From contig CBIMES010000001.1 in NCBI GenBank assembly GCA_966243015.1, forward strand, positions 426,076-490,075: DNA of 64,000 nucleotides, read 5' to 3'. The translations under genes were made by a program, and so were the position numbers. Within the stretch, counting starts at the first letter, position 1. The number at the start of each line of letters is the position of its first letter. The notes under the pieces are model-generated. The model saw only the letters and a program-made list of their open reading frames with translations, searched no databases and was not told the DNA's origin. This document shows, piece after piece, positions 5,496 to 51,437 of the stretch. Source of the DNA: an uncultured bacterium (GTDB taxonomy: Bacteria > Patescibacteriota > Minisyncoccia > Phycocordibacterales > UBA6065).

Positions 5496-5562
5496 GCGTA
5501 AAGTGTAACACAATAAAAAAGGCCCCAAGGAATTGCTTCCAAGGGGCCAATTGGCCCAAACG

Positions 5563-5913
5563 TTAGCCACAAGGTGACGGCATGCTTCCGACAAGCCGCT
5601 CTTCCATGTCGTGGAGAGCGTTGCGGACCAGCTTTGACACCTGCTCGGGATTTCTGATGGGCTCGCAGAAATCTCGTTGAAACGAACAGACGTAACCATC
5701 GTATTCGAACGACCACTGGACATCGGGCTCGCAATCGCTGCCGAAGACATCGGCGAGCGCCTGAGCGATGGCGCCCGTGGTGTCTCGAATTTCTCGGAGA
5801 ATCGCGGCGAAATAAACCACGGTTCCCTCGATCTTTACGATACCCAGCTTTCCCGACTCGCCAACACCTTGAACGTGCTGGAGGTTTTCGAACTTAACGT
5901 CGCGGACTTTCAT
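5563..5913 (-). CDS. Hypothetical protein (116 aa)
   Basis: ORF-track ORF with plausible composition and a downstream hairpin terminator at about 5500-5540. No recognisable family. Confidence 0.45.
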   Translation of the reverse strand: MKVRDVKFENLQHVQGVGESGKLGIVKIEGTVVYFAAILREIRDTTGAIAQALADVFGSDCEPDVQWSFEYDGYVCSFQRDFCEPIRNPEQVSKLVRNALHDMEERLVGSMPSPCG

Positions 5914-7715: not shown

Positions 7716-8501
7716 CTACATGATACTAAGAATCAGGATGCCGACAAGGATACGGTAATAACCGAACGGCACAAGATCCCTCGTCTGCACGTACTTCATG
7801 AAGACGCGAATGACCGCCCAGGCGACGAGGAAGGAGACGACGAAGCCCGTCGCAAGAACCAGCGCCTCGTGGAAGCCCATGCCTGACACGCCCTTGAGAA
7901 GCGCGTATCCCGATGCCGCCGCAATGGTCGGCACAGCAAGGAAGAACGAAAACTCAACCGCGGCCACGCGCGAGACGCCAAGGAAGAGCGCGCCGATGAT
8001 GGTCGCAGCCGATCGAGACGTGCCGGGAACGAGCGCGAGACACTGGGCGATGCCAACGAGGAAGGCCGTGCGGTAGCTCATGCCCTCAACGTTCGCGGCA
8101 CCCTCGCGCTTGGGCATTTTCTCGGAAACAATGAGGAGCACGCCGCCTACGATAAGGGCCACGGCAACCGTCTCGACGCTGAAGAGATGCCCCTGTATCC
8201 AGTCGCCGAAGAGCGCGCCGAGGGCGAGGGCGGGCACGACGGCGACGAGAGTCTTCTTCCAAGTGCCGAATGCGGCCGACGCGGCCTGGCAGCCGCCGAA
8301 CGGCCACAGCCTCCTCCGGAACAAAATGAGCACGGCACAAATGGCCCCCAGCTGTATGACGATGTCGAAGGTCTCGGCAAAACCCGGCGCAAGAGAGAAC
8401 CACTCACCCACGAGGATAAGGTGGCCCGTTGAAGACACCGGAAGGAACTCGGTCACCCCCTCAACTATTCCCAGGACAACGGCACTTAGAAAATCAAACA
8501 T
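7716..8501 (-). CDS. uppP: Undecaprenyl-diphosphate phosphatase
   Basis: EGVTEFLPVSSTGH and PGTSRSAATI signature motifs of UppP/BacA. Confidence 0.9.
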   Translation of the reverse strand: MFDFLSAVVLGIVEGVTEFLPVSSTGHLILVGEWFSLAPGFAETFDIVIQLGAICAVLILFRRRLWPFGGCQAASAAFGTWKKTLVAVVPALALGALFGDWIQGHLFSVETVAVALIVGGVLLIVSEKMPKREGAANVEGMSYRTAFLVGIAQCLALVPGTSRSAATIIGALFLGVSRVAAVEFSFFLAVPTIAAASGYALLKGVSGMGFHEALVLATGFVVSFLVAWAVIRVFMKYVQTRDLVPFGYYRILVGILILSIM

Positions 8502-8513
8502 GGCGCAGTGGAA

Positions 8514-9089
8514 TTACATGGTTACCTTCTGCACATTCGCCCTCTTGAGAAGCTCGGCCCGAAGTCGCTCGGCCACCTCCCTGTCTATGGACGGTATTAC
8601 CCCTTCGTCGTGCTGGACGCCCTTCTTGCTGTCGTCGCCCTCGGCACTCACCTCGTCGCGACTCGCCGTGTATATGACAAGGCGACTGAGGCCCGCGATC
8701 TGCTGAGTAATCGTCCTCTCTATGTCGATGTTCTGTATCTGTCGGTACGGAATCGCGGTCTCCTGCTTGGTGAAGACTCCGCGACGGATGCGAAGGGCGT
8801 CCTCGGCAAGGAGGAATCCGGAATTCCTATACACAAGCCAGCTCGACAGGAAGCCAGCGGCCAAGGCAACGGCGGCAAAAGCGAGAAGGGCCCACGACGC
8901 GACGCGAACGAGAGGGGCGACGTCAGGCGAGACAAACGACTGCGCGCGGACAAGGGAAAGACCGAATGCCGCAAGAAGAAAGAAAACGCCCGCGCCGATC
9001 CTCTTTGACACGAGGAACCAGAAGGTCTTCTGGCCAAGCGGCTGGTAGGTTGAGCCGGAAAACGCCTCGACAGATAAGTCTGTGTACAT
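8514..9089 (-). CDS. Membrane-flanked bacterial PH-domain (bPH_2, YdbT-like) protein
   Basis: Two N-terminal TM helices followed by a bPH_2-like domain (RIRRGVFTKQETAIPYRQIQNIDIERT). Confidence 0.75.
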   Translation of the reverse strand: MYTDLSVEAFSGSTYQPLGQKTFWFLVSKRIGAGVFFLLAAFGLSLVRAQSFVSPDVAPLVRVASWALLAFAAVALAAGFLSSWLVYRNSGFLLAEDALRIRRGVFTKQETAIPYRQIQNIDIERTITQQIAGLSRLVIYTASRDEVSAEGDDSKKGVQHDEGVIPSIDREVAERLRAELLKRANVQKVTM

Positions 9090-9189: not shown

Positions 9190-12100
9190 CTAGTTGCCAA
9201 TCGCGACCCTCGTCCTTGCGCCGAAGTACCCCTCTGCCGGCGAGATACCCTTGGCAGACTGGAATCGCGAGAGAGCCGACCTCGTGGCGGGACCGAAGGT
9301 TGTCGTCTCAAGGCCCGGTGAACCAGCGCCCGAAACGGACACCACAAAACCATTCTCGTTGAGATATCGCTGAAGGAGTCTAATGCACGAGCCAGTTGAT
9401 CCGACCTGCATATCTGGACAAGTTCCAAGCGACTCGGGCTCAGGTGAAGGAGCTGCGGAAGCAGAAGGGATCAAATTGAGTGGGATAACGAGACCATTTA
9501 CCGTCACGCTCGCAGGCGCGGAAGGCCCAAGAAGCACGCTGAGGAGGCGAGCCAACACCGACCGGTCGATAGAGACAGAGACAGTCGGAACCACGGATGG
9601 CGCGACGACGGTCGCGGTCGTGAACGATGCGACATTCGAGGCCCTGCGAGCAGAGCTACCCGAAGAAGCTCGTGGCGGTGCCGAAGACTGATTGTCCGAA
9701 CCTTCAGATGACGGGCTCGAGAACGAGAATGAAACAGTCCTGGTTGAAGAACCTGTCGAACTTGCCCCTCGAACAGTGAGGGTCACATTGCCAGCGGATG
9801 GAGCAGCAATATCCGAACCACCGTTTGAACAGACCAAGTCCGAGAACGAAACACCGTCAAAGGAATAGGCGCAAGATTCAGAGTTTCCCCAAGAAATCGA
9901 AGGCGACCAGGAGTTCAGTGTAGAGGAAGCGACAGGAGATCCGATTGAAAGGGTCGGGGCGACCTCCGGCACGAATGAGCCGCCGTTTCGCGCGATAAAG
10001 AGAGTTGTTTCATTGTAATCGCTGTCCTGGAGATCTACCTGAGCACCGTCTGCAATCACCGTCCATGGGCCCTGTTCGTCAAATATAAATTCATGATCCG
10101 TATCCGAGATGATCAGACGTATCCTGGCGCCATCGATATCTCCACCCGAAAAAGAAGCACCGTCCCCCACGAACGTTGCGTCTCCCGTTATCGTGCCGTA
10201 GCTAGATGAATTATCATAGAATTCAGCAGACCCCTCTATGATTCCATCGTTTGAAGAATTATCCCTAAAGACGGCATCCCCGAAAATCGTCCCTTGATTC
10301 TGGGCGTACTCTCTGAATACGGCACCGTCAGCAACCGTCAAATCAATCGAGTTGTAACCATTGATGAATTCAGCCGACTTAACCGATGCGGGATCACCCG
10401 AATTTCCATACACAGTGCTCTGTACGATGAGGACATGATCATTTATACCAGGAATTGATGTCTCGTTAACACTCAGAGTTAAATCAGTCCACCAATTGTC
10501 CTGATTATTCCAATCACCGTCACCGGTGTCGTAGTCGTTGAAATAGAAGCCGTCATCAGGGTACCCGTGATACGTGATGGTACCGTATACGCTACCATCC
10601 AAAGGAAGTTCAACGGGGTAATATACATCCACATTACCCTCAACGACACCTTCGTGATAGGCCTCGACGCCTCTAAACTCGGCATTTCCCACAACCGTGC
10701 CGTCATTGCCGGAATCATTGAATATGGCATTACCCCCTATGATTCCATGGGCTTGACTTTCTGAAAGAAACTCGGCATCGCCCGTAATAGTGCCAAGCAT
10801 ATACGAATCCTCTTCAAACAAGGCGTCTCCCGTTATAGTCGCCCCATCTAGATAAGCCCCGTTCTGGAATGTTGCGAGACCAGTCACCGTAACATCGACA
10901 TAAAGAGTGCTGTCGATTACAAAGAGATTGGCAACGGCGGTCGTTGATCCCCCCGAATCACTATCAACCGAGTCCAAGAGAACGACATCGTCAGATGAAT
11001 TCGGGATTCTTCCCGCGTTTTCCGAAAGGTCGGGGCCCGTCCACCACAAGTCGGGCTCGTTCCAGTCATAATCATCTTCCCACGATTCAGGCACGTAGTA
11101 ATAAAGACCGTCTGGGTAGCCATGGAAAGTTGAAGTGCCCCCTACCGTGGCGCGAAACGGAAGCTCAACCGGAGTATACACGTCAAGATTACCCTCAATA
11201 ACAACCCCATCCGGCGAATCATCAACCCAGCTGTCGCCCCTTGCGGAAACGTTGCCTCGAATAAGGGTCCCGTACCCGAGAGCCGAGTCGATAAATTCCG
11301 CGTCACCCTTCACTTCACCGTAATTGTAAGCATCATTGATGAAACGCGCGTCCGTCGGAACCACAGCACCCTCATCATTTGCGTGACCATCGAATATAAA
11401 GAGCGTGATCTCTTGATCATCAGGACCGTACAAGGTTCCGCCGATGGATGGCTGGTAGGTGTTGTTATTGATGGTGAGCGTCGAGGTGCTGAAGGGGCCG
11501 TAATAAAGCGTCTCGACATAGGCATTGCCCGTAACCTCTATGTCACCCATGCTGATTCCCGTTCCAAAAGAGGCGTTTCCAATGACGCGATCTACCTGCA
11601 AGCCCGCATACTCCGAGTCTTCCTGCTGAGTGTTAACGAAAGACACACCCCTTTCAAGGGCCTCGCCGGTAAGACCCGTCGAGTCGATAGAATCGACGGG
11701 ATAGTACACCGAAAAATCAATAAGGGACGCGTCTAATACTGGCGCGACAGGGCCCAGAAGACGCGCGTCCATCTCGTTATGCGTTCCCGGTACCTCACCA
11801 GCGGGAACCGTGTGCGATTCGTCTGAATACCAATTATCGACATTGAACCAATCGGTGTCGCCCGCAGAGTACCAGTAGTAGTAACCATCGGTGACAGTGA
11901 AAAGCTCGGAGGCAACCGTGGCCTCATTGCCGTTCTCATCCGTGCCCCGAACCGTGAGAGTGTGCTGGCCGATAGAGGGAGCCGGAATATCATACCCCGC
12001 CGCCTCACAGTCAACGGCCTGGTAGCTTTCCTCATCAAACGCATACTCGCAAACCGCCGAGTCTCCCCACGACACACCAATGTCCCATGCGCTTGATTTG

Positions 12101-13389
12101 ATCGAGGAGCCCGGGCTCATAAAATCACCTAACTGCAGATCCGGAGGAGTGACATCGTTGTAGGTAAAGGAGACCGAGGTCGAGGTTGCCTCTCCGTTCT
12201 CATCGAGAAATATCGACAGGGTGTAATCACCGTTTGTCAGGACCTCATCCGAAAGCTCGTCGCCAGTGCTGCCGCAACTCACCACCTGTCGAGGCAACTC
12301 ATTTAACTGATACTCACAGACGGAACCGTCATCGGGACCGCCGAAGGAAATCAAAGGGTTCCACTCTCCCTCGCCGATAACGGACAAATTTGTCGGGCTC
12401 GAAATAGAAATGGTCGGTACGCCCCAATTAAACCCTATAATAGCGCCTGAACGTATGGCATAGAAGGTTTTGCCGTCCGAAGAAAAGGGAGAAACACCTC
12501 CCCATTGCTGAAACGGACTCTTTTGGCCCCAGGTCTGACCGCCGTCGAATGAGGCATACGGCGAACCTAACCCGCCGAACGAAACCATTCTCTCGCCATC
12601 GGCTGAGACTGACACATATAAACTCGAGGCGCCGGTATCCGAGGTTGACGACCAGCTTGAGCCGGAGTCACGGGAGTACCGCAGGTAGTCGTTGCTTGAT
12701 CCGACGACGACTGTCGAACCATCAGCGGAAACGGAGGCCCCACGCCAAAGACCGAGGCCAACCTCTGAGACGGCGTCCCAGGAGGCTCCCGAGTCAGTCG
12801 AGAGATACGCTGACCCAGAATCCTTCGTGGCAGCAATCACACTGCCGTCATCGGACACGGCGACATCGAACCAGTTGCCTGAGCCCGAAGCGCTCGAGGT
12901 CGCCCAGGTCGAACCGGAATCAGAGGATATAAATATATATTCGTCACTTGCGAGAGCCACGGAAGACCCGTCGCCCGATACCGCCACGGACCTCCACGGG
13001 ACGCCCGTGGGAAGACCCGTGGAAATTGTGTTCCAGGAGTTTCCGAGGTCCTCGGAAGAGTATGGCCCTCCGTTCAGACCAACCGCGACCACAAGAGATT
13101 CGTCGCGAGACATGGCGATATCACTCCATTGGGTTGAGGGAGCATCTTTTCTCTGAATAAACGCGCTCCCCCCAATCTTTTCATAGAACCAGACGTAGTC
13201 ATTGCTTGACTGATTGACGGCGACGACATTGTTTCCATCTCCGGAAGACGAGAGGGCCGTCCACGAACCGTTGAGGCCCGTGATGAAATTTTGGAAGGCG
13301 GCGAAAGCGTGGCCTGCCGATGACAGAAAAGCCATCCCCATCAAGATGACAGCGACGACGCGAAAAAATCTTTTTTTCAAGGTGAACAT
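9190..13389 (-). CDS. Giant secreted surface protein (1400 aa): signal peptide, BNR/Asp-box propeller repeats, Ig-like modules, beta-helix-like 16-aa repeats, Ser/Ala/Pro linker, C-terminal peptidoglycan-binding domain
   Basis: Start trimmed to MFTLKKRFFRVVAVILMGMAFLSSAGHAFAAF, a signal peptide with ATG at 13389. Repeated SxDxGxTW boxes (SEDLGNSW, SSDSGSTW, STDSGASW, SRDSGSSW, SFDGGQTW). Repeats of type GTITGDAEFLSESQAHGIIGGNAIFNDSGNDG. C-terminal LLQRYLNENGF...FGPATRSALSRFQSAKGI matches PG_binding_1. Confidence 0.85.
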   Translation of the reverse strand: MFTLKKRFFRVVAVILMGMAFLSSAGHAFAAFQNFITGLNGSWTALSSSGDGNNVVAVNQSSNDYVWFYEKIGGSAFIQRKDAPSTQWSDIAMSRDESLVVAVGLNGGPYSSEDLGNSWNTISTGLPTGVPWRSVAVSGDGSSVALASDEYIFISSDSGSTWATSSASGSGNWFDVAVSDDGSVIAATKDSGSAYLSTDSGASWDAVSEVGLGLWRGASVSADGSTVVVGSSNDYLRYSRDSGSSWSSTSDTGASSLYVSVSADGERMVSFGGLGSPYASFDGGQTWGQKSPFQQWGGVSPFSSDGKTFYAIRSGAIIGFNWGVPTISISSPTNLSVIGEGEWNPLISFGGPDDGSVCEYQLNELPRQVVSCGSTGDELSDEVLTNGDYTLSIFLDENGEATSTSVSFTYNDVTPPDLQLGDFMSPGSSIKSSAWDIGVSWGDSAVCEYAFDEESYQAVDCEAAGYDIPAPSIGQHTLTVRGTDENGNEATVASELFTVTDGYYYWYSAGDTDWFNVDNWYSDESHTVPAGEVPGTHNEMDARLLGPVAPVLDASLIDFSVYYPVDSIDSTGLTGEALERGVSFVNTQQEDSEYAGLQVDRVIGNASFGTGISMGDIEVTGNAYVETLYYGPFSTSTLTINNNTYQPSIGGTLYGPDDQEITLFIFDGHANDEGAVVPTDARFINDAYNYGEVKGDAEFIDSALGYGTLIRGNVSARGDSWVDDSPDGVVIEGNLDVYTPVELPFRATVGGTSTFHGYPDGLYYYVPESWEDDYDWNEPDLWWTGPDLSENAGRIPNSSDDVVLLDSVDSDSGGSTTAVANLFVIDSTLYVDVTVTGLATFQNGAYLDGATITGDALFEEDSYMLGTITGDAEFLSESQAHGIIGGNAIFNDSGNDGTVVGNAEFRGVEAYHEGVVEGNVDVYYPVELPLDGSVYGTITYHGYPDDGFYFNDYDTGDGDWNNQDNWWTDLTLSVNETSIPGINDHVLIVQSTVYGNSGDPASVKSAEFINGYNSIDLTVADGAVFREYAQNQGTIFGDAVFRDNSSNDGIIEGSAEFYDNSSSYGTITGDATFVGDGASFSGGDIDGARIRLIISDTDHEFIFDEQGPWTVIADGAQVDLQDSDYNETTLFIARNGGSFVPEVAPTLSIGSPVASSTLNSWSPSISWGNSESCAYSFDGVSFSDLVCSNGGSDIAAPSAGNVTLTVRGASSTGSSTRTVSFSFSSPSSEGSDNQSSAPPRASSGSSARRASNVASFTTATVVAPSVVPTVSVSIDRSVLARLLSVLLGPSAPASVTVNGLVIPLNLIPSASAAPSPEPESLGTCPDMQVGSTGSCIRLLQRYLNENGFVVSVSGAGSPGLETTTFGPATRSALSRFQSAKGISPAEGYFGARTRVAIGN

Positions 13390-13471
13390 AATGCAGAAAT
13401 TATAACACCACCCTTCACAAAAAAACACCGAGGGCCATTTACCCATAAAACCTGGCGCGCCCTTAAACCAC

Positions 13472-13815
13472 GGAGGATGAGAGATTCTGTCACGGGTAAT
13501 TTTCTGCCGAAAATTCCCGCGGCCCCGCCTCGTGCCGTCGCGTTCCTGCCTTCCCATAACTCATCCCCACGCAAAAGAAAAAACCGGTCAGACGGCCATG
13601 GGACGTCCTCTCGGTCTTTTGCGGAGGATGAGAGATTCGGTCCTTACAGGACCAGTACCCACGGTTGGATTTTACCTTCGCCGGGTACGGCTCGATAAAA
13701 TCTCAACCGAGCTTCGAATCTCTCACGCAGACGCAACGCGTCTGCTATCCTCCGCTTAATAAAATCGCCGCCATACGGCGGGATTTTAAAGGCGGAGGAT
13801 GAGAGATTCGAACTC
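13472..13815. repeat. Array of tRNA-Ser 3'-end-derived repeats (GGAGGATGAGAGATTC): direct copies at 13472-13487 and 13621-13640, the authentic tRNA 3' end at 13793-13815, and an inverted copy with a 22-nt hairpin insertion at 13711-13757
   Basis: Read directly. 13621-13757 forms a 137-bp unit with 19-bp terminal inverted repeats. Confidence 0.7.
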
Positions 13816-13879
13816 TCGGTGCCATTTCTGACACACAGTCTTTCCAGGACTGCGCACTAGACCACTATGCGAATCCTCC
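13793..13879 (-). tRNA. tRNA-Ser (anticodon GGA), class II with long variable arm; CCA not encoded
   Basis: Manual fold: acceptor GGAGGAT/ATCCTCC, D-stem GCA/TGC, anticodon stem CAGTC/GACTG with loop CTGGAAA, 5-bp variable stem, T-arm GAGAG-TTCGAAT-CTCTC. Confidence 0.8.
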
Positions 13880-13950
13880 GTGTCCTATGAGAATAGCCGA
13901 AAATCAGAGATAAGCAAAGGGCGGTACGTGGCACGCCAGGCACAGGCGCA

Positions 13951-39171: not shown

Positions 39172-39394
39172 CGCGGGAGAGCTTCTTAATGCGAGCCTCC
39201 TCGACCGAGGCTGACGACCTGTCGGGAAAGGCCCTCGAGTACACGAGCCTCACCGGGCGACGGCTGCGGGTGTATTTTGCGCCCCTTGATCCAGGGGCGG
39301 CAGAGTTGTGCTCCTCCACCCTGCGGGCGAGGTCGGTCGTGATGCCCGTGTAGAGGGTGTTGTCGGAACAGAGGAGGATGTAGAGGTGGTACAT
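39146..39394 (-). CDS. GIY-YIG nuclease family protein (82 aa)
   Basis: YHLYILLCSDNTLYTGITTDLARRVEEH matches the GIY-YIG catalytic module. The ATG overlaps the DUF2075 stop codon (TAATG). Confidence 0.85.
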   Translation of the reverse strand: MYHLYILLCSDNTLYTGITTDLARRVEEHNSAAPGSRGAKYTRSRRPVRLVYSRAFPDRSSASVEEARIKKLSRDEKLALAR

Positions 39395-41364
39395 TAAATT
39401 TCCTTAAACCCAATACTTTTTAAGTAACCGTAGGTTTCGTCGTAAAATTCTGGGCTACGTGTCGAATCATTCGCATCTCCGTTGGGCACAACAATAACCA
39501 TGCCCTGTCGTGCACGAGTTAGCAAAACACGATAGGCGTTTTTCTGATATGTCTGCCTCTCTTCTTTTTTAATATTCTGCCATCTACTGCCAACAAAGGA
39601 ATAATGACCCCATGCATCTCCCGTATACCTAAAGTCCCCATCCCAAACCACACAAGACCAGTCGAGCTCAAGACCCTGAATGTCAAACTCAGTAGCAACA
39701 TCCTCCATGTAGTACGACGAACGAACATCGTCCTTTCCATCCAAAAACCAGTGAACCGGATCAACCGTTGACTTAACGAATATGGCATGCGGCCGTAGAC
39801 GCTCCGCCTGAGATGAGACGATCATCCCGTAACGCTCGCTTCCACGCGCATGTGTTTTAATCCAATCCTTTGCCATCTTAATGTCACGAGTGATTACTAT
39901 TGGATACTTTTCGTGTAACCCCTCCAAAGTTTTGCTTGCTTGCAACGGCCTTATATCAAGAACCTCTTTTACCAATTTAGAGACATTTTCAGCACGAAAA
40001 GAACGCATCGAAACCGCAAGGTGCAATTCGTCAATGAAATGAACATTTTTTTGGTTTTTAATTTTCTCAATAATTTCACCGCTACCGTATTCCGAGTCAG
40101 TGAGGCGTGGCGAAACATATATTTCCCATTCAGGGAAGGATCCATTGAGGCAATTTATCCATTCTTTTATACCTCCCTCACCCGTATGAATCTCCTGTCC
40201 GCCGCCGACAAGGCACACAACGGTCGCCCAATCATTGTGCCTATCCATACACGAAATAAGAAATTCTGGCTCTGAAAGATTAAAATCTTGCTGCCCTTTT
40301 TTCCTTCGCATGAAATCGACCGTCTGCTTTTTATCCCAAGCACGTTGCGCCTCATCAAAAAGTGCCACGTGCTCAATTGGCGCTTTCTGCCCCCGAAGAC
40401 AATCGTCTCTAAAGTGGTGAACGTTTTGGATAAACAAACTAACTTCACGAATTGCGTCTTTTTTTGTAAATCTATTTCCTTTTTCCTTTTCCCTTGCGAC
40501 ACGATCTCGCGCCAAAGCCTCTCGTAGAATCGAAACAAGAGGACCGTTCCCCGAAAGATACACGCTATATAAATCACTGTCCTTATCAAGGTGTTTTTGA
40601 GCCACATCAAGTCCGACAAGCGTCTTGCCCGCACCGGGAACACCGGTCACAAAACAAATCGATTTACGCCCATTTTTCTTAGAATCAGCTATAACGCCTG
40701 AAACACGAGCAACGGTGTTTTTGAGATTTATGGCACCCGCATCTGAACGAGAGATACTTTCAACTGCATGTCCGCGATAAAGCGACATTGCAGCTTCTAC
40801 AATCGTAGGTGTTGGGCTATATATGCCGTCTTCCCACTTACGTTGGTTTATTTTCCCTGAGTCAACAAATTTTTCGAGCAGAGAAAAAATATCTTTCACA
40901 CCCTCGGCATTGACAGCAATGGGCTGAAAAACCTTATCTTCTTGCTTCGAAAATTGAGGGGTTACGATAGTTTGTTTTGCCTCTGTTGCAACAAGAACAG
41001 GGGCAATGTATATATCATGGCTAGTGCTGTGAAAATTTTTGAGATCCAGGGCATAATCCCAGACTTGATCAAGTGCATATGAGGCATATGCCGATTCGCC
41101 CACCTTAAACTCAATAACGTATAAAGTGTTCCCGGTAATAACCACGGCGTCTATACGCCTTCCCATTCGGGGAATTGAGTATTCGAAATAAATAGCACCG
41201 TCCTTATTTTTTAACGCTTCCTTCAATAACCTGATCTGTGCAATCCACGTGTCTCGTTGGGCTTTGATCACATCAAAATCACTGCTTGCGGTGATCTTGC
41301 CAAGGACAGTATCGACGTCTTCACCTAGAAACGATTGTATCGTATTTGAGTAAAAGTGATTCAC
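39394..41364 (-). CDS. DUF2075 (Schlafen-like) nuclease-helicase: N-terminal PD-(D/E)xK-like module and P-loop SF1-like ATPase
   Basis: N-terminal RIDAVVITGNTLYVIEFKV (D...ExK), Walker A GVPGAGKT, C-terminal YRVLLTRARQGMVIVVP typical of the DUF2075 end. GC about 42% against a 60% background. Confidence 0.85.
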   Translation of the reverse strand: MNHFYSNTIQSFLGEDVDTVLGKITASSDFDVIKAQRDTWIAQIRLLKEALKNKDGAIYFEYSIPRMGRRIDAVVITGNTLYVIEFKVGESAYASYALDQVWDYALDLKNFHSTSHDIYIAPVLVATEAKQTIVTPQFSKQEDKVFQPIAVNAEGVKDIFSLLEKFVDSGKINQRKWEDGIYSPTPTIVEAAMSLYRGHAVESISRSDAGAINLKNTVARVSGVIADSKKNGRKSICFVTGVPGAGKTLVGLDVAQKHLDKDSDLYSVYLSGNGPLVSILREALARDRVAREKEKGNRFTKKDAIREVSLFIQNVHHFRDDCLRGQKAPIEHVALFDEAQRAWDKKQTVDFMRRKKGQQDFNLSEPEFLISCMDRHNDWATVVCLVGGGQEIHTGEGGIKEWINCLNGSFPEWEIYVSPRLTDSEYGSGEIIEKIKNQKNVHFIDELHLAVSMRSFRAENVSKLVKEVLDIRPLQASKTLEGLHEKYPIVITRDIKMAKDWIKTHARGSERYGMIVSSQAERLRPHAIFVKSTVDPVHWFLDGKDDVRSSYYMEDVATEFDIQGLELDWSCVVWDGDFRYTGDAWGHYSFVGSRWQNIKKEERQTYQKNAYRVLLTRARQGMVIVVPNGDANDSTRSPEFYDETYGYLKSIGFKEI

Positions 41365-41447
41365 GGCTTTTTTGTGGTTGTTGTTTAGGTATTATATTTA
41401 TACTAACACCCAACATACCTGAAAATCTCTTAGATTTCACACAAAAT

Positions 41448-41912
41448 TCACTTCGCGAGCCTGAATCTTCCGGTAATATTCCATGGTAGTCTTTTAAGAT
41501 TTTTCCTCTTAATATCATGCTCCCAAATCACCACCGTCTTCCACCCCTCCCTCTTAAGCGCCCTGAGATTTTTTCGATCCCTCGCCCTATTGCCCAATAT
41601 CTTATGTGACCAAAACTCGGTGTTAGTCTTGGGCATTCCCTTGGTACACTTCCTGCACCCGTGCCAGAAACAGCCGTTGATAATGATGGCAATCTTTCGC
41701 CCAGGAAAGGCGATGTCGGGCTTACCGGGGGCCTTCTTCCAGTGAAGTCGGTAGCCGCGAATGCCGAGCGAAGACAAATGCTTGCGCACGATAAGCTCAG
41801 GCTTCGTATTCTTGGACTTGTTAGCGAGCATCACGTTCCTCACCGCGATGCTTGTCGAAACGGGAGTCGGCGGACGTTTCGCAGGCTTCTTTTTTGATAA
41901 TTTCCTTATCAT
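41448..41912 (-). CDS. vsr: Very-short-patch-repair endonuclease (Vsr-like)
   Basis: KPDIAFPGRKIAIIINGCFWHGC and later WEHD match the Vsr family. No DNA m5C methyltransferase gene is adjacent. Confidence 0.85.
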   Translation of the reverse strand: MIRKLSKKKPAKRPPTPVSTSIAVRNVMLANKSKNTKPELIVRKHLSSLGIRGYRLHWKKAPGKPDIAFPGRKIAIIINGCFWHGCRKCTKGMPKTNTEFWSHKILGNRARDRKNLRALKREGWKTVVIWEHDIKRKNLKRLPWNITGRFRLAK

Positions 41913-41933
41913 TTGTTGATAAAGAATTTATCA
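41895..41933. promoter_or_regulatory. Operator-like array: two TGATAA-N5-TTATCA palindromes (41895-41911 and 41917-41933). The four hexamers are phased 11 bp apart and overlap the vsr RBS and start codon.
   Basis: Read directly. Hexamers at 41895, 41906, 41917 and 41928. Confidence 0.6.
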
Positions 41934-41966
41934 CGTTTTAAGAACTAAATGTAACCGCCCCAGAGG

Positions 41967-42317
41967 CTATTTAACCCTAAAAACCTCCCCTCTCCCCGTC
42001 CTCCCCACCGACACGACAAAGCCCTCCGCGGCGAGGGTGGCGAGATACCGTTCCGCCTGGGCGCGGTCGAAGCCAAGCATGTCCTGCACGTCAGACACCG
42101 AGACCTCGAGGCGATGCCTGACGAGCACTCTCACCCGCTCGAGGTTCTCGCGCCTCGCGAAAGCGTCCTCCTCGGGCGCAGATGGTGTGACGCCGGCAAC
42201 CACGCCCGCCTCGCTCATCTCCGTCGACCGTCTGCGCACGACGTAGACAATGATCGTGACGGCGGCAGCGAGGACGAGGAGGGCAGCGATGATGAGGACG
42301 ACAGGGACGATATTCAT
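41967..42317 (-). CDS. Membrane-anchored winged-HTH protein (paralog A)
   Basis: N-terminal TM helix and C-terminal wHTH-like DVQDMLGFDRAQAERYLATLAAEGFVVSVGRTGRGEVFRV. Paralogous to 43267..43647. Confidence 0.6.
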   Translation of the reverse strand: MNIVPVVLIIAALLVLAAAVTIIVYVVRRRSTEMSEAGVVAGVTPSAPEEDAFARRENLERVRVLVRHRLEVSVSDVQDMLGFDRAQAERYLATLAAEGFVVSVGRTGRGEVFRVK

Positions 42318-51366: not shown

Positions 51367-51437
51367 TGCCGGATCGTCTAAAGGTAGGACGTCGCTCTCT
51401 GAAAGCGAAAATTTTGGTTCGATTCCAAGTCCGGCAA
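51367..51437 (+). tRNA. tRNA-Gln (anticodon CTG)
   Basis: Manual fold: acceptor TGCCGGA/TCCGGCA (U1-A72 as in bacterial tRNA-Gln), D-stem GTCT/GGAC, anticodon stem TCGCT/AGCGA with loop CTCTGAA, T-arm TTTGG-TTCGATT-CCAAG, discriminator A. Followed by terminator hairpin aaagccccgtcatatgacggggcttttc (51441-51480). Confidence 0.8.

Follow-up and report, generated by a model that had tools for sequence, protein, structure and literature searches.

A putative family of small structured inserts recurring behind tRNA-Ser genes

The 3' end of a tRNA-Ser(GGA) gene in a stretch of 64,000 nucleotides from an uncultured bacterium (the window) is followed by two unrelated inserts, which are bounded exactly by further copies of the tRNA end and are absent from a sister species. 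Inserts of the same layout recur behind tRNA-Ser genes in other metagenomic contigs, where their arms match the local tRNA, their number varies between strains and their helices show compensatory base changes. Judged by sequence comparison, these inserts appear to form a recurrent, structured family anchored at tRNA-Ser, which has no match in Rfam or in the phage, plasmid and viral records searched; the mechanism that we describe for them below is a proposal. The original prediction for this locus had seen a repeat array and a hairpin element, interpreted as a trace of integration at the tRNA and placed in the leader of a large surface-protein gene. Its observation is confirmed by our analysis, and its interpretation is partly supported.

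Three copies of the tRNA-Ser 3' end

The complement of the last 17 nt of tRNA-Ser(GGA), CGGAGGATGAGAGATTC, occurs in three exact copies on the plus strand of the window, and the further direct copies that had been predicted are thereby confirmed. The tRNA gene and the copies are located as follows.

13791/13793-13879, minus strand: tRNA-Ser(GGA) gene (ARAGORN; Rfam tRNA model, 53.8 bits)
13793-13809, plus strand: repeat copy 1 (17 nt; up to 13811 as 19 nt), inside the tRNA-Ser(GGA) gene
13622-13638, plus strand: repeat copy 2, exact match to CGGAGGATGAGAGATTC
13471-13487, plus strand: repeat copy 3, exact match to CGGAGGATGAGAGATTC

The spacing is 151 bp from copy 3 to copy 2 and 171 bp from copy 2 to copy 1, 19 nt are common to copies 1 and 2, and the block of identity between the tRNA and the repeats begins in the T-loop. 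If up to three mismatches are allowed, the window contains six matches to the tRNA end, compared to a mean of 1.13 in 100 dinucleotide-preserving shuffles of the window, none of which reached six. The repeat copies carry the genomic ...CCGCA and not the mature ...CCGCCA; since no CCA tail is present, they derive from DNA and not from a mature tRNA, and an origin by reverse transcription of mature tRNA was rejected for this reason. ARAGORN called no additional tRNA or tmRNA, and for the tRNA-Gln at 51367 no repeat of its end was found. A self-BLAST of the intergenic region revealed no further copy of the array sequence in the 64-kb window.

The inserts are missing from a sister species

Read along the strand of the tRNA, the genes are arranged in the order CDP-alcohol phosphatidyltransferase, LemA, TPM-domain protein, tRNA-Ser, array, large gene, bPH_2 protein, BacA and PAP2. 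The best protein relatives, with about 50% identity, carry the labels Paceibacterota, Parcubacteria or Patescibacteria, which suggests an uncultivated member of this group as the source of the window, and a scan of the genome collection with the TPM protein gave distant relatives only (at most 48% identity). Two features on the far side of the array from the tRNA are needed for the comparison with other genomes.

13390-13470, minus strand: ancestral tRNA-downstream spacer with the promoter of the large gene (orthologous to the L085 spacer, z = 6.9)
9190-13389, minus strand: gene of a large secreted protein of 1399 aa (signal peptide; C-terminal PG_binding_1 domain, Pfam; ATG at 13389)

The nearest relative with usable sequence is the sister species L085, the TPM protein of which is 71-79% identical and which has the same order of TPM gene, tRNA-Ser and large gene, with a tRNA-Ser that differs from that of the window at one base. 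In L085, tRNA and ATG are separated by 91 bp, which consist of a terminator followed by a promoter. The DNA after copy 3 aligns with this spacer (z = 6.9), whereas the segments that follow copies 1 and 2 reach z = 1.7 and 1.0. Since orthology to the L085 spacer is limited to the DNA after copy 3, this copy sits at the position of the L085 tRNA end, and we infer that it represents the ancestral 3' end of the tRNA. With only 91 bp between tRNA and ATG in L085, the window therefore holds about 322 extra bp, which are bounded exactly by the repeats, and the segment downstream of the tRNA is polymorphic for presence and absence among relatives. The difference of 322 bp could be due either to a gain in the lineage of the window or to a loss in L085 via recombination between the repeats. 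In the contigs of the window's own species that we compared (L001-L004), the array is identical and thus provides no sign of current mobility.

Three direct copies with regular spacing (151 and 171 bp) could have arisen if the tRNA 3' end had been duplicated in tandem together with its terminator, or copied by replication slippage. However, the segments after the three copies are unrelated when compared pairwise (z = 0.1, -0.1 and 1.0), and the closest relatives of both units are found in other genomes. From this we conclude that tandem duplication, which we regard as barely credible, is to be rejected and that the extra DNA consists of two different units, here termed unit A (next to the tRNA) and unit B.

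The same comparison bears on the large gene. The last 84 bp before its ATG, including an extended -10 element (TGTTATAAT, 13399-13407) located in the spacer ahead of the ATG, are orthologous to the array-free L085. Since this conserved promoter sits after copy 3, the array lies upstream of the promoter and not, as had been supposed, in the leader of the large gene. Nor do we find evidence for the suggestion that the gene came with, or is controlled from, an element integrated at the tRNA: L085 has the gene but no array, and the promoter of the gene is located downstream of the array. No matching distal repeat was found past the large gene, and nothing in the data ties this gene to an integrated element; it is a neighbour of the inserts and not a part of the element.

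Anatomy and folding of the two units

Each unit comprises a terminator-like hairpin and a palindrome ending in a repeat copy. The parts, all read on the minus strand, are listed in the order in which they follow the tRNA.

13758-13790, minus strand: terminator-like hairpin of unit A, CGCCG-TATGG-CGGCG followed by ATTTTATT, directly after the tRNA (terminator scan, fold)
13621-13755, minus strand: palindrome of unit A, type Y, 135 nt (folds; homology to L120 and L171; compensatory changes)
13747-13755, minus strand (sense order): 5' arm of unit A, part 1, with the inverted-copy part ATCCTCCGC
13726-13745, minus strand: inserted hairpin of unit A, CGCAGACGC-AA-CGCGTCTGC, 20 nt, splitting the 5' arm
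13715-13725, minus strand: 5' arm of unit A, part 2, with the inverted-copy part TTCGAATCTCTCA at 13713-13725
13640-13714, minus strand: internal Y domain of unit A
13621-13639, minus strand: 3' arm of unit A, which is repeat copy 2
13574-13620, minus strand: terminator-like hairpin of unit B, GGCCGTCTGACCGG followed by TTTTTTCTTTT (terminator scan, fold)
13471-13573, minus strand: palindrome of unit B, type X (nhmmer against the X profile, E = 1e-20)

The inverted copy of the tRNA end is composed of TTCGAATCTCTCA (13713-13725) and ATCCTCCGC (13747-13755) and closes, together with copy 2, the 135-nt palindrome of unit A, the 19-nt arms of which are about 100 nt apart. An inverted copy interrupted by a hairpin and a long hairpin element had both been anticipated and are present, although the inserted hairpin measures 20 nt (13726-13745) instead of 22 nt and the element 135 nt (13621-13755) instead of 137. 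Indeed, the fold of this element is far more stable than expected from its composition: as RNA, the tRNA-sense strand reaches -77.4 kcal/mol compared to -41.7 +/- 4.1 kcal/mol for shuffled sequences (z = -8.8), the opposite strand gives z = -8.9, and the two strands folded as DNA give z = -9.4 and -9.1.

Unit B folds weakly. Its 5' arm is decayed (GCGTGGGGATGAGTTATGGG), its interior contains the motif GAGGCGGGGCCGCGGG...GTGACA, and its 3' arm is repeat copy 3 (13471-13487). As whole modules, unit A and unit B comprise 171 bp and 151 bp, respectively; both are non-coding, and they are unrelated to each other (z = 0.5). The perfect arms of the tRNA-proximal unit A and the decayed arms of the distal unit B fit a stack in which the newest insert is located nearest to the tRNA.

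Related units behind tRNA-Ser genes in other contigs

A metagenome scan for copies of the tRNA end without the T-loop TTC in front of them yielded 47 loci, many of which are plainly chance matches in coding or unrelated DNA. Together with two cases (L010 and L171) that came from inspecting further tRNA-Ser genes, at least nine metagenomic contigs besides the window carry units of the same layout directly behind a tRNA-Ser gene. In this layout, the tRNA-Ser is followed by a short and often terminator-like hairpin; then come the complement of the tRNA end, a hairpin-rich stretch of about 100 nt and, once more, the tRNA end. Such units follow tRNA-Ser(GGA) in L100/L108, L137 and L140, a tRNA-Ser with the anticodon ACT in L111/L127 and L126, tRNA-Ser(CGA) in L010, and a tRNA-Ser(GGA) with a different 3' end in L171. 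The L120 locus, in which the tRNA is not visible, harbors at least six units in an array that also includes two ORFs between units, and several of its near-identical units lie between ordinary-looking genes. The 340-aa ORF between the L120 units encodes a widespread Paceibacteria-type protein; a relative of it in L170 occurs without units and with a serine integrase and a rolling-circle Rep nearby.

The interiors of the units fall into at least two types. Unit A (type Y) is 65% identical to the L120 units outside the core (z = 9.9), and nhmmer with type Y gives E = 1e-29 for the window and 1e-11 for the L171 unit, which is also of type Y. Unit B (type X) is 69% identical to the L108 unit outside the core (z = 7.8), and type X relatives are present in L108/L100, L111/L127, L126, L140 and in one of the L120 units. 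The L010 unit, judged by its motifs (GAGTGAC near the 3' arm), is type X-like, and the interiors of the L137 units and of the second L127 unit are neither X nor Y.

Across loci, the units are 151-200 bp in size and all have the same orientation as the tRNA. Most of them are preceded by a terminator-like hairpin with a T-run, there is no room for their own promoter, and the extra hairpin that splits the 5' arm is found in some units only, at two different positions. The G+C content of the unit-bearing genomes ranges from 36% to 58%, and that of the lineages with type Y units from 42% to 58%. Every unit with visible context is located directly behind a tRNA-Ser gene or behind another unit, and no dispersed copies were detected in the other 170 loci or elsewhere in the 64-kb window. 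The existence of hairpin units in other genomes means that the original prediction is not refuted on the point that it had itself named, a lack of further copies. As a separate observation, L122 contains an isolated copy of the tRNA end without arms.

Arms tuned to the local tRNA and compensatory changes

The arms of the units follow the tRNA next to which they are found. In L010, the 3' arm AATTCTCCCCCTCTTCGCCA matches the end of the adjoining tRNA-Ser(CGA), GAATCTCCCCCTCTCCGCCA, and in L171 a Y interior is joined to arms of the contig's own tRNA, the 5' arm GGGAGATTCGAA being the exact complement of the tRNA sequence TTCGAATCTCCC. In L120, the cores vary between units and the 5' arms, read by eye, appear to vary along with them. 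Most 5' arms retain GATTCGAA, a sequence that pairs with the tRNA past the unit's own 3' arm.

In the alignment of type X units (6 lineages), 83.8% of the cells are paired in the consensus structure. The covariation score of this small sample is 0.348 compared to 0.168 in shuffles (0 of 500 reached the observed value) and at most 0.112 with slid partners, and one helix carries double changes in six of its seven pairs. For type Y, which is represented by only three lineages, a hairpin with the loop UGUAA has three stem versions (GGUCC/GGACC, GAAAC/GUUUC and CUCC/GGAG). The motifs UGUAA, GGGUACUG, GAGUCGGGGUCGA and GUGACC are conserved in loops or linkers. As far as these alignments go, it is thus the predicted structure of the units that is conserved, and not their sequence alone.

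Of the two strands, it is the tRNA-sense strand that has the better fold in 12 of the 13 units, with 33 G-U pairs versus 10 on the antisense strand. This strand bias points to a single-stranded working form of the tRNA-sense strand, either RNA or DNA, and could in part reflect base composition.

Searches for machinery, parent elements and known families

No integrase, resolvase or transposase domain was identified by Pfam among 29 tested proteins of the window, nor a recombinase in the flanks of the units in L108, L111, L120, L126, L137 and L140, so that the integrase expected from the original prediction was found neither among these proteins nor beside the units of these six loci. In Rfam searches, only genuine tRNAs scored (E-value threshold of 10 in the window and 0.05 in eight other loci). 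The units had no blastn match in phage and plasmid records. In viral contigs, the tRNA end, its complement and the X motif matched only phage tRNA genes or chance sites in coding DNA, and the type Y motif had no match. An autonomous parent element, or a free or circular form, was not seen, the phage, plasmid and viral collections contained nothing similar, a target-site duplication was found at the flanks of none of 8 units, and our literature search retrieved no description of such units.

Turnover at the tRNA-Ser locus

The number of units varies between strains, since L127, which is otherwise near-identical to L111, contains one additional unit. In L100 and L108, the tRNA and its unit are the same, but the sequences diverge right after the last repeat. 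The content downstream of the tRNA differs as well among the contigs that we compared, as listed below; by its TPM protein, L108 is the outgroup to the other contigs with the syntenic locus.

Window: units Y and X; downstream of the tRNA, the large gene
L108: unit X; downstream of the tRNA, small genes
L171: unit Y; downstream of the tRNA, an island with an acetyltransferase
L085: no units; downstream of the tRNA, the large gene
L172 and L006: no units; downstream of the tRNA, other, non-homologous content
L095: no units; downstream of the tRNA, an island with a 682-aa reverse transcriptase
L088: no unit recognised; downstream of the tRNA, a metabolic gene set replacing the large gene

Larger inserts are present at the same tRNA in L095, L171 and L100, and all of them begin with the motif AGTAYCGGNRTGACCYRAGT. 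The tRNA-Ser locus is clearly a hot spot of replacement.

A proposed mode of insertion

The reading that we favor, to which we give a little less than an even chance, is that the units are cargo-less, non-autonomous modules of site-specific insertion, which stack at the 3' end of tRNA-Ser with a recombinase from elsewhere and possibly as folded single strands. [quoted passage not shown] A module is made up of a short terminator-like hairpin, a long imperfect palindrome and one of at least two conserved internal domains (X and Y), and the palindrome has the last 17-19 nt of the tRNA as its 3' arm and their complement, often split by an extra hairpin, as its 5' arm. Insertion would occur by site-specific recombination within or beside the T-loop, the presumed crossover region of one class of tRNA-targeting integrases. 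Each module would supply a fresh tRNA 3' end together with a terminator and would shift the previous end downstream, with the newest module adjoining the tRNA, and the recombinase would be supplied in trans. As a folded single strand, the palindrome may rebuild a double-stranded tRNA-end site, comparable to integron attC or CTX attP. That a module may work in this way, with a duplex copy of the target rebuilt by folding, is suggested by its inverted arm, its conserved structure and the strand bias. Two facts weaken this step: a recombinase is missing, and the folded arms restore no more than the 3' half of the T-arm, whereas classic att sites of the T-loop type use the whole symmetrical T-arm.

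Comparison with known systems

Like the integrative elements at tRNA 3' ends (mv4, tycheposons, islands), the units have an identity block of 17-19 nt that restores the tRNA, and successive insertions would shift older copies downstream and leave partial tRNA copies behind. As is typical for such elements, we found flanking direct repeats of the tRNA and presence or absence with breakpoints at the repeats; an integrase gene and cargo or replication genes were not found, and ORFs between units occur only in L120. Phage mv4 uses tRNA-Ser(CGA) as attB. Its attP measures 234 bp and includes a core of 17 bp that has the same sequence as the 3' end of tRNA-Ser (10.1101/2023.11.06.565760), and with 151-200 bp the units are in the range of such complete attP sites. 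In tycheposon islands, it is successive integrations that leave the partial tRNA copies (10.1101/2020.12.28.424599). Unlike these elements, the units have neither integrase nor cargo, a whole unit being about the size of an att site, and they possess an inverted second copy of the core, a conserved and covarying internal domain and a recurrence as stand-alone sequences.

The units also resemble parts of integrons, the attC sites of which rebuild a duplex site by single-strand folding. In common with attC, they are imperfect palindromes (about 60-140 nt), structure is kept more than sequence and one strand is favored. One arm repeats the core of the primary site, and the stacking of units beside a fixed primary site may be comparable to the head-to-tail cassette arrays of integrons: the window has two empty units, L127 has two units, and L120 has at least six units with two ORFs between them but no visible tRNA. 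In contrast to integrons, the core GTTRRRY/RYYYAAC is absent from the units, the arms of which read GCGGAGGAT...ATCCTCCGC, the internal sequence is conserved, and the primary site is a tRNA end, which is not adjacent to intI and has the housekeeping genes for TPM, LemA and CDP-alcohol phosphatidyltransferase as neighbors.

A second precedent is the attP(+) of the CTX phage, an Xer-dependent integrating element. Two inverted target-like sites about 90-100 nt apart fold in its ssDNA and so rebuild a duplex site for recombination; the phage, which integrates as a folded single strand at dif, does not encode the recombinase itself (PMC3442271). Inverted target-like sites that form a hairpin from one strand are equally present in the units. 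Unlike in CTX, the target is a tRNA-Ser end and not dif, no Rep gene or other phage or rolling-circle gene is attached, and the hairpin rebuilds only part of the T-arm. A wider version of our proposal, which is possible but in our estimation doubtful, would be an integron- or CTX-like system operating on a tRNA gene in Patescibacteria-like bacteria, which takes up hairpin modules, and occasionally gene cassettes, and stacks them at tRNA-Ser ends, with arms that co-evolve with the isoacceptor. The roles within such a system would be no less doubtful: the tRNA end might serve as the primary site and the modules as its attC-like single-stranded partners.

Alternative explanations

The main rival to insertion modules is that the units are structured non-coding RNA genes, which mimic the acceptor/T-arm helix of tRNA-Ser, are trimmed by RNase P and RNase Z after read-through transcription from the tRNA or a neighboring gene, function as RNA, and originated by local copying of the tRNA end. 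We consider both this identity and this origin unlikely, even though the compensatory changes in internal helices, the conserved motifs in loops and linkers, the bias towards the sense strand (12 of 13 units, in which it has the lower folding energy and a larger number of G-U pairs) and the common orientation with the tRNA could all be explained in this way. The same applies to the paired ends, which copy acceptor and T-stem as in tRNA-like non-coding RNAs (YrlA/Y RNA, the tRNA-like domain of tmRNA), and to the extra hairpin of unit A and L111, which is positioned exactly where the tRNA body leaves the acceptor/T-stem stack. However, this hairpin is missing or displaced in other units, a mimic of the T-loop or D-arm is absent, Rfam provides no match, a terminator-like hairpin with T-run lies ahead of most units, and space for a promoter is lacking. 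Moreover, unit B is visibly decaying, and the patchy occurrence among close relatives, the strain-variable copy number and the stacking of unrelated units correspond to the distribution of mobile DNA and not to the pattern of a housekeeping RNA.

Mobile DNA could also have left the units behind in another form, namely as inert scars (attL/attR or attP arms) of integrase-bearing prophages or islands that had integrated at tRNA-Ser and were later deleted. Inserted DNA bounded by direct repeats of the tRNA 3' end is what such events produce, partial tRNA copies from successive integrations are well known, for example from tycheposons (10.1101/2020.12.28.424599), and the hot-spot character of the locus, the larger inserts in L095, L171 and L100 starting with AGTAYCGGNRTGACCYRAGT and the armless, isolated tRNA-end copy in L122 are in agreement with scars. 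Random deletion, however, would not yield the same 135-200-bp architecture with a core-complementary arm at ten or more independent loci, nor would it be expected to result in conserved X and Y domains with compensatory changes in genomes from 36% to 58% G+C, and fragments of an integrase were not seen. We therefore regard this explanation as quite unlikely. The terms scar and remnant used in the original prediction do not hold in view of conserved structured families behind tRNA-Ser in at least nine other contigs, with compensatory changes and tRNA-tuned arms; its proposal of integration and excision at a tRNA attB gains support from an indel bounded exactly by repeats and from the stacking of unrelated units, although no integrase was found. 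Non-autonomous transposons similar to MITEs or REPINs, with a transposase encoded elsewhere and inverted repeats that match the tRNA end by chance, share with the units the terminal inverted repeats of 17-19 bp, the small size, the intergenic location, the lack of coding capacity and the folding into hairpins, and the near-identical L120 units between ordinary-looking genes have a similar appearance. We nevertheless judge this reading very unlikely: the palindromes lack a target-site duplication, units with context are confined to one kind of site, behind tRNA-Ser or another unit, and are never dispersed, no other copy exists in the 64-kb window or in the other 170 loci, and the arms follow the local tRNA instead of representing fixed transposon ends.

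Implications

The related inserts behind tRNA-Ser in other bacteria point to an undescribed type of small mobile DNA rather than to random scars. The bacteria concerned have very small genomes with few recognised mobile elements, and little is understood of how their DNA is exchanged and rearranged. Gene-less, structured modules with a preference for tRNA-Ser ends would, as a family, define a group-wide recombination hot spot. In relatives, the same tRNA is followed by quite different content, namely the gene of a large surface protein, a set of metabolic genes, or an island with either a reverse transcriptase or an acetyltransferase. In practical terms, the units break assemblies, with contigs ending at this tRNA, and could be mis-annotated as tRNA fragments. 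The family would also provide a sequence handle for finding the responsible recombinase, and should the modules prove to work as folded single strands, this would be a third independent case of the strategy after integron attC and CTX-phage attP.

A motif opening larger inserts at the tRNA-Ser 3' end

In four independent contigs, the motif AGTAYCGGNRTGACCYRAGT is placed immediately after the final copy of the tRNA 3' end, and gene-bearing inserts that are larger than the units, i.e. the small gene-less palindromic inserts behind tRNA-Ser genes, begin with this motif.

Positions of AGTAYCGGNRTGACCYRAGT in the compared contigs
L095 2122-2141, motif
L100 294-313, motif
L171 4137-4156, motif
L120 about 2752-2771, motif with one mismatch

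The insert in L095 is an island with a 682-aa reverse transcriptase, and the one in L171 is an acetyltransferase island; the window lacks the motif. AGTAYCGGNRTGACCYRAGT appears to form the left end of an insert of a third kind, one that carries cargo, at the tRNA-Ser 3'-end site.

tRNA-Ser loci in other contigs

Units of the same kind as in the window are also borne by three loci of tRNA-Ser with the anticodon ACT, which is unusual in bacteria.

tRNA-Ser genes with anticodon ACT
L111 2125-2212, minus strand
L126 463-549
L127 197-284, adjoined by tRNA-Ser(GCT)

These genes have their 3' end in common with the tRNA-Ser(GGA) of the window. An 82-nt sequence, GGGGTCGCGCCGAAGGCGCGACACTAATGCATTCCCCCCGCCGAATCCAGAATCCAAAAGGGTTTTCCACGCTCCGCGTGG, lies about 30 nt past the tRNA-Ser genes of L009 (about 8478-8559) and L111 (about 5500-5581, minus strand); it is identical in these unrelated contigs with differing flanks and is without an Rfam match.

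At the syntenic locus, the relative L088 carries a gene set (L088 7076-11604) in place of the large surface-protein gene. The set encodes DsbB, dihydroorotate dehydrogenase, a 2-hydroxyacid dehydrogenase and a histidine phosphatase, together with a fragment of pyruvate kinase, and is bounded as in the window by the tRNA-Ser on one side and the bPH_2/BacA flank on the other. Contigs L093 and L094 of two relatives, in neither of which a tRNA was called, terminate 117 bp and 102 bp past the TPM gene, respectively. Both ends coincide with the place of the tRNA-Ser locus in syntenic relatives, which suggests that this hot spot breaks short-read assemblies.

The viral contigs L090 (about 585-667) and L091 (minus strand, same sequence) contain a tRNA-like minihelix of about 65 nt, composed of GGAGGAT, one hairpin and then GGGAGTTCGAATCTCTCATCCTCCG. 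Its acceptor and T arm are those of the window tRNA-Ser; ARAGORN made no tRNA call for it.

Elsewhere in the window, a stretch of low G+C content (39394-42317; 0.44-0.45 compared to 0.58 for the window), which has no tRNA beside it, codes for a Schlafen-like helicase, a Vsr endonuclease and a small HTH protein. This stretch probably represents a defence or restriction island gained by horizontal transfer.

Genes between units, and an integrating element in related bacteria

Array and integrating element
L120 1-2741, six or more units of the internal types X and Y in an array
L170 1-2141, large serine recombinase and rolling-circle replication initiator

The expected tRNA-Ser is not visible in L120 because the contig begins inside a unit. 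Two ORFs sit between its units; one encodes a 340-aa proteasome-like protein, the other a 197-aa P-loop protein, and each is followed by a common segment of about 47 nt (GGTCAAG...CTTGACCAACCACAGTTCTAAC.CGAGACAGCCCG). In L170, where no X/Y units are present at 1-2141, the serine recombinase and the rolling-circle initiator adjoin a homologue of the 340-aa ORF. This arrangement shows that small integrating rolling-circle elements exist in related bacteria.
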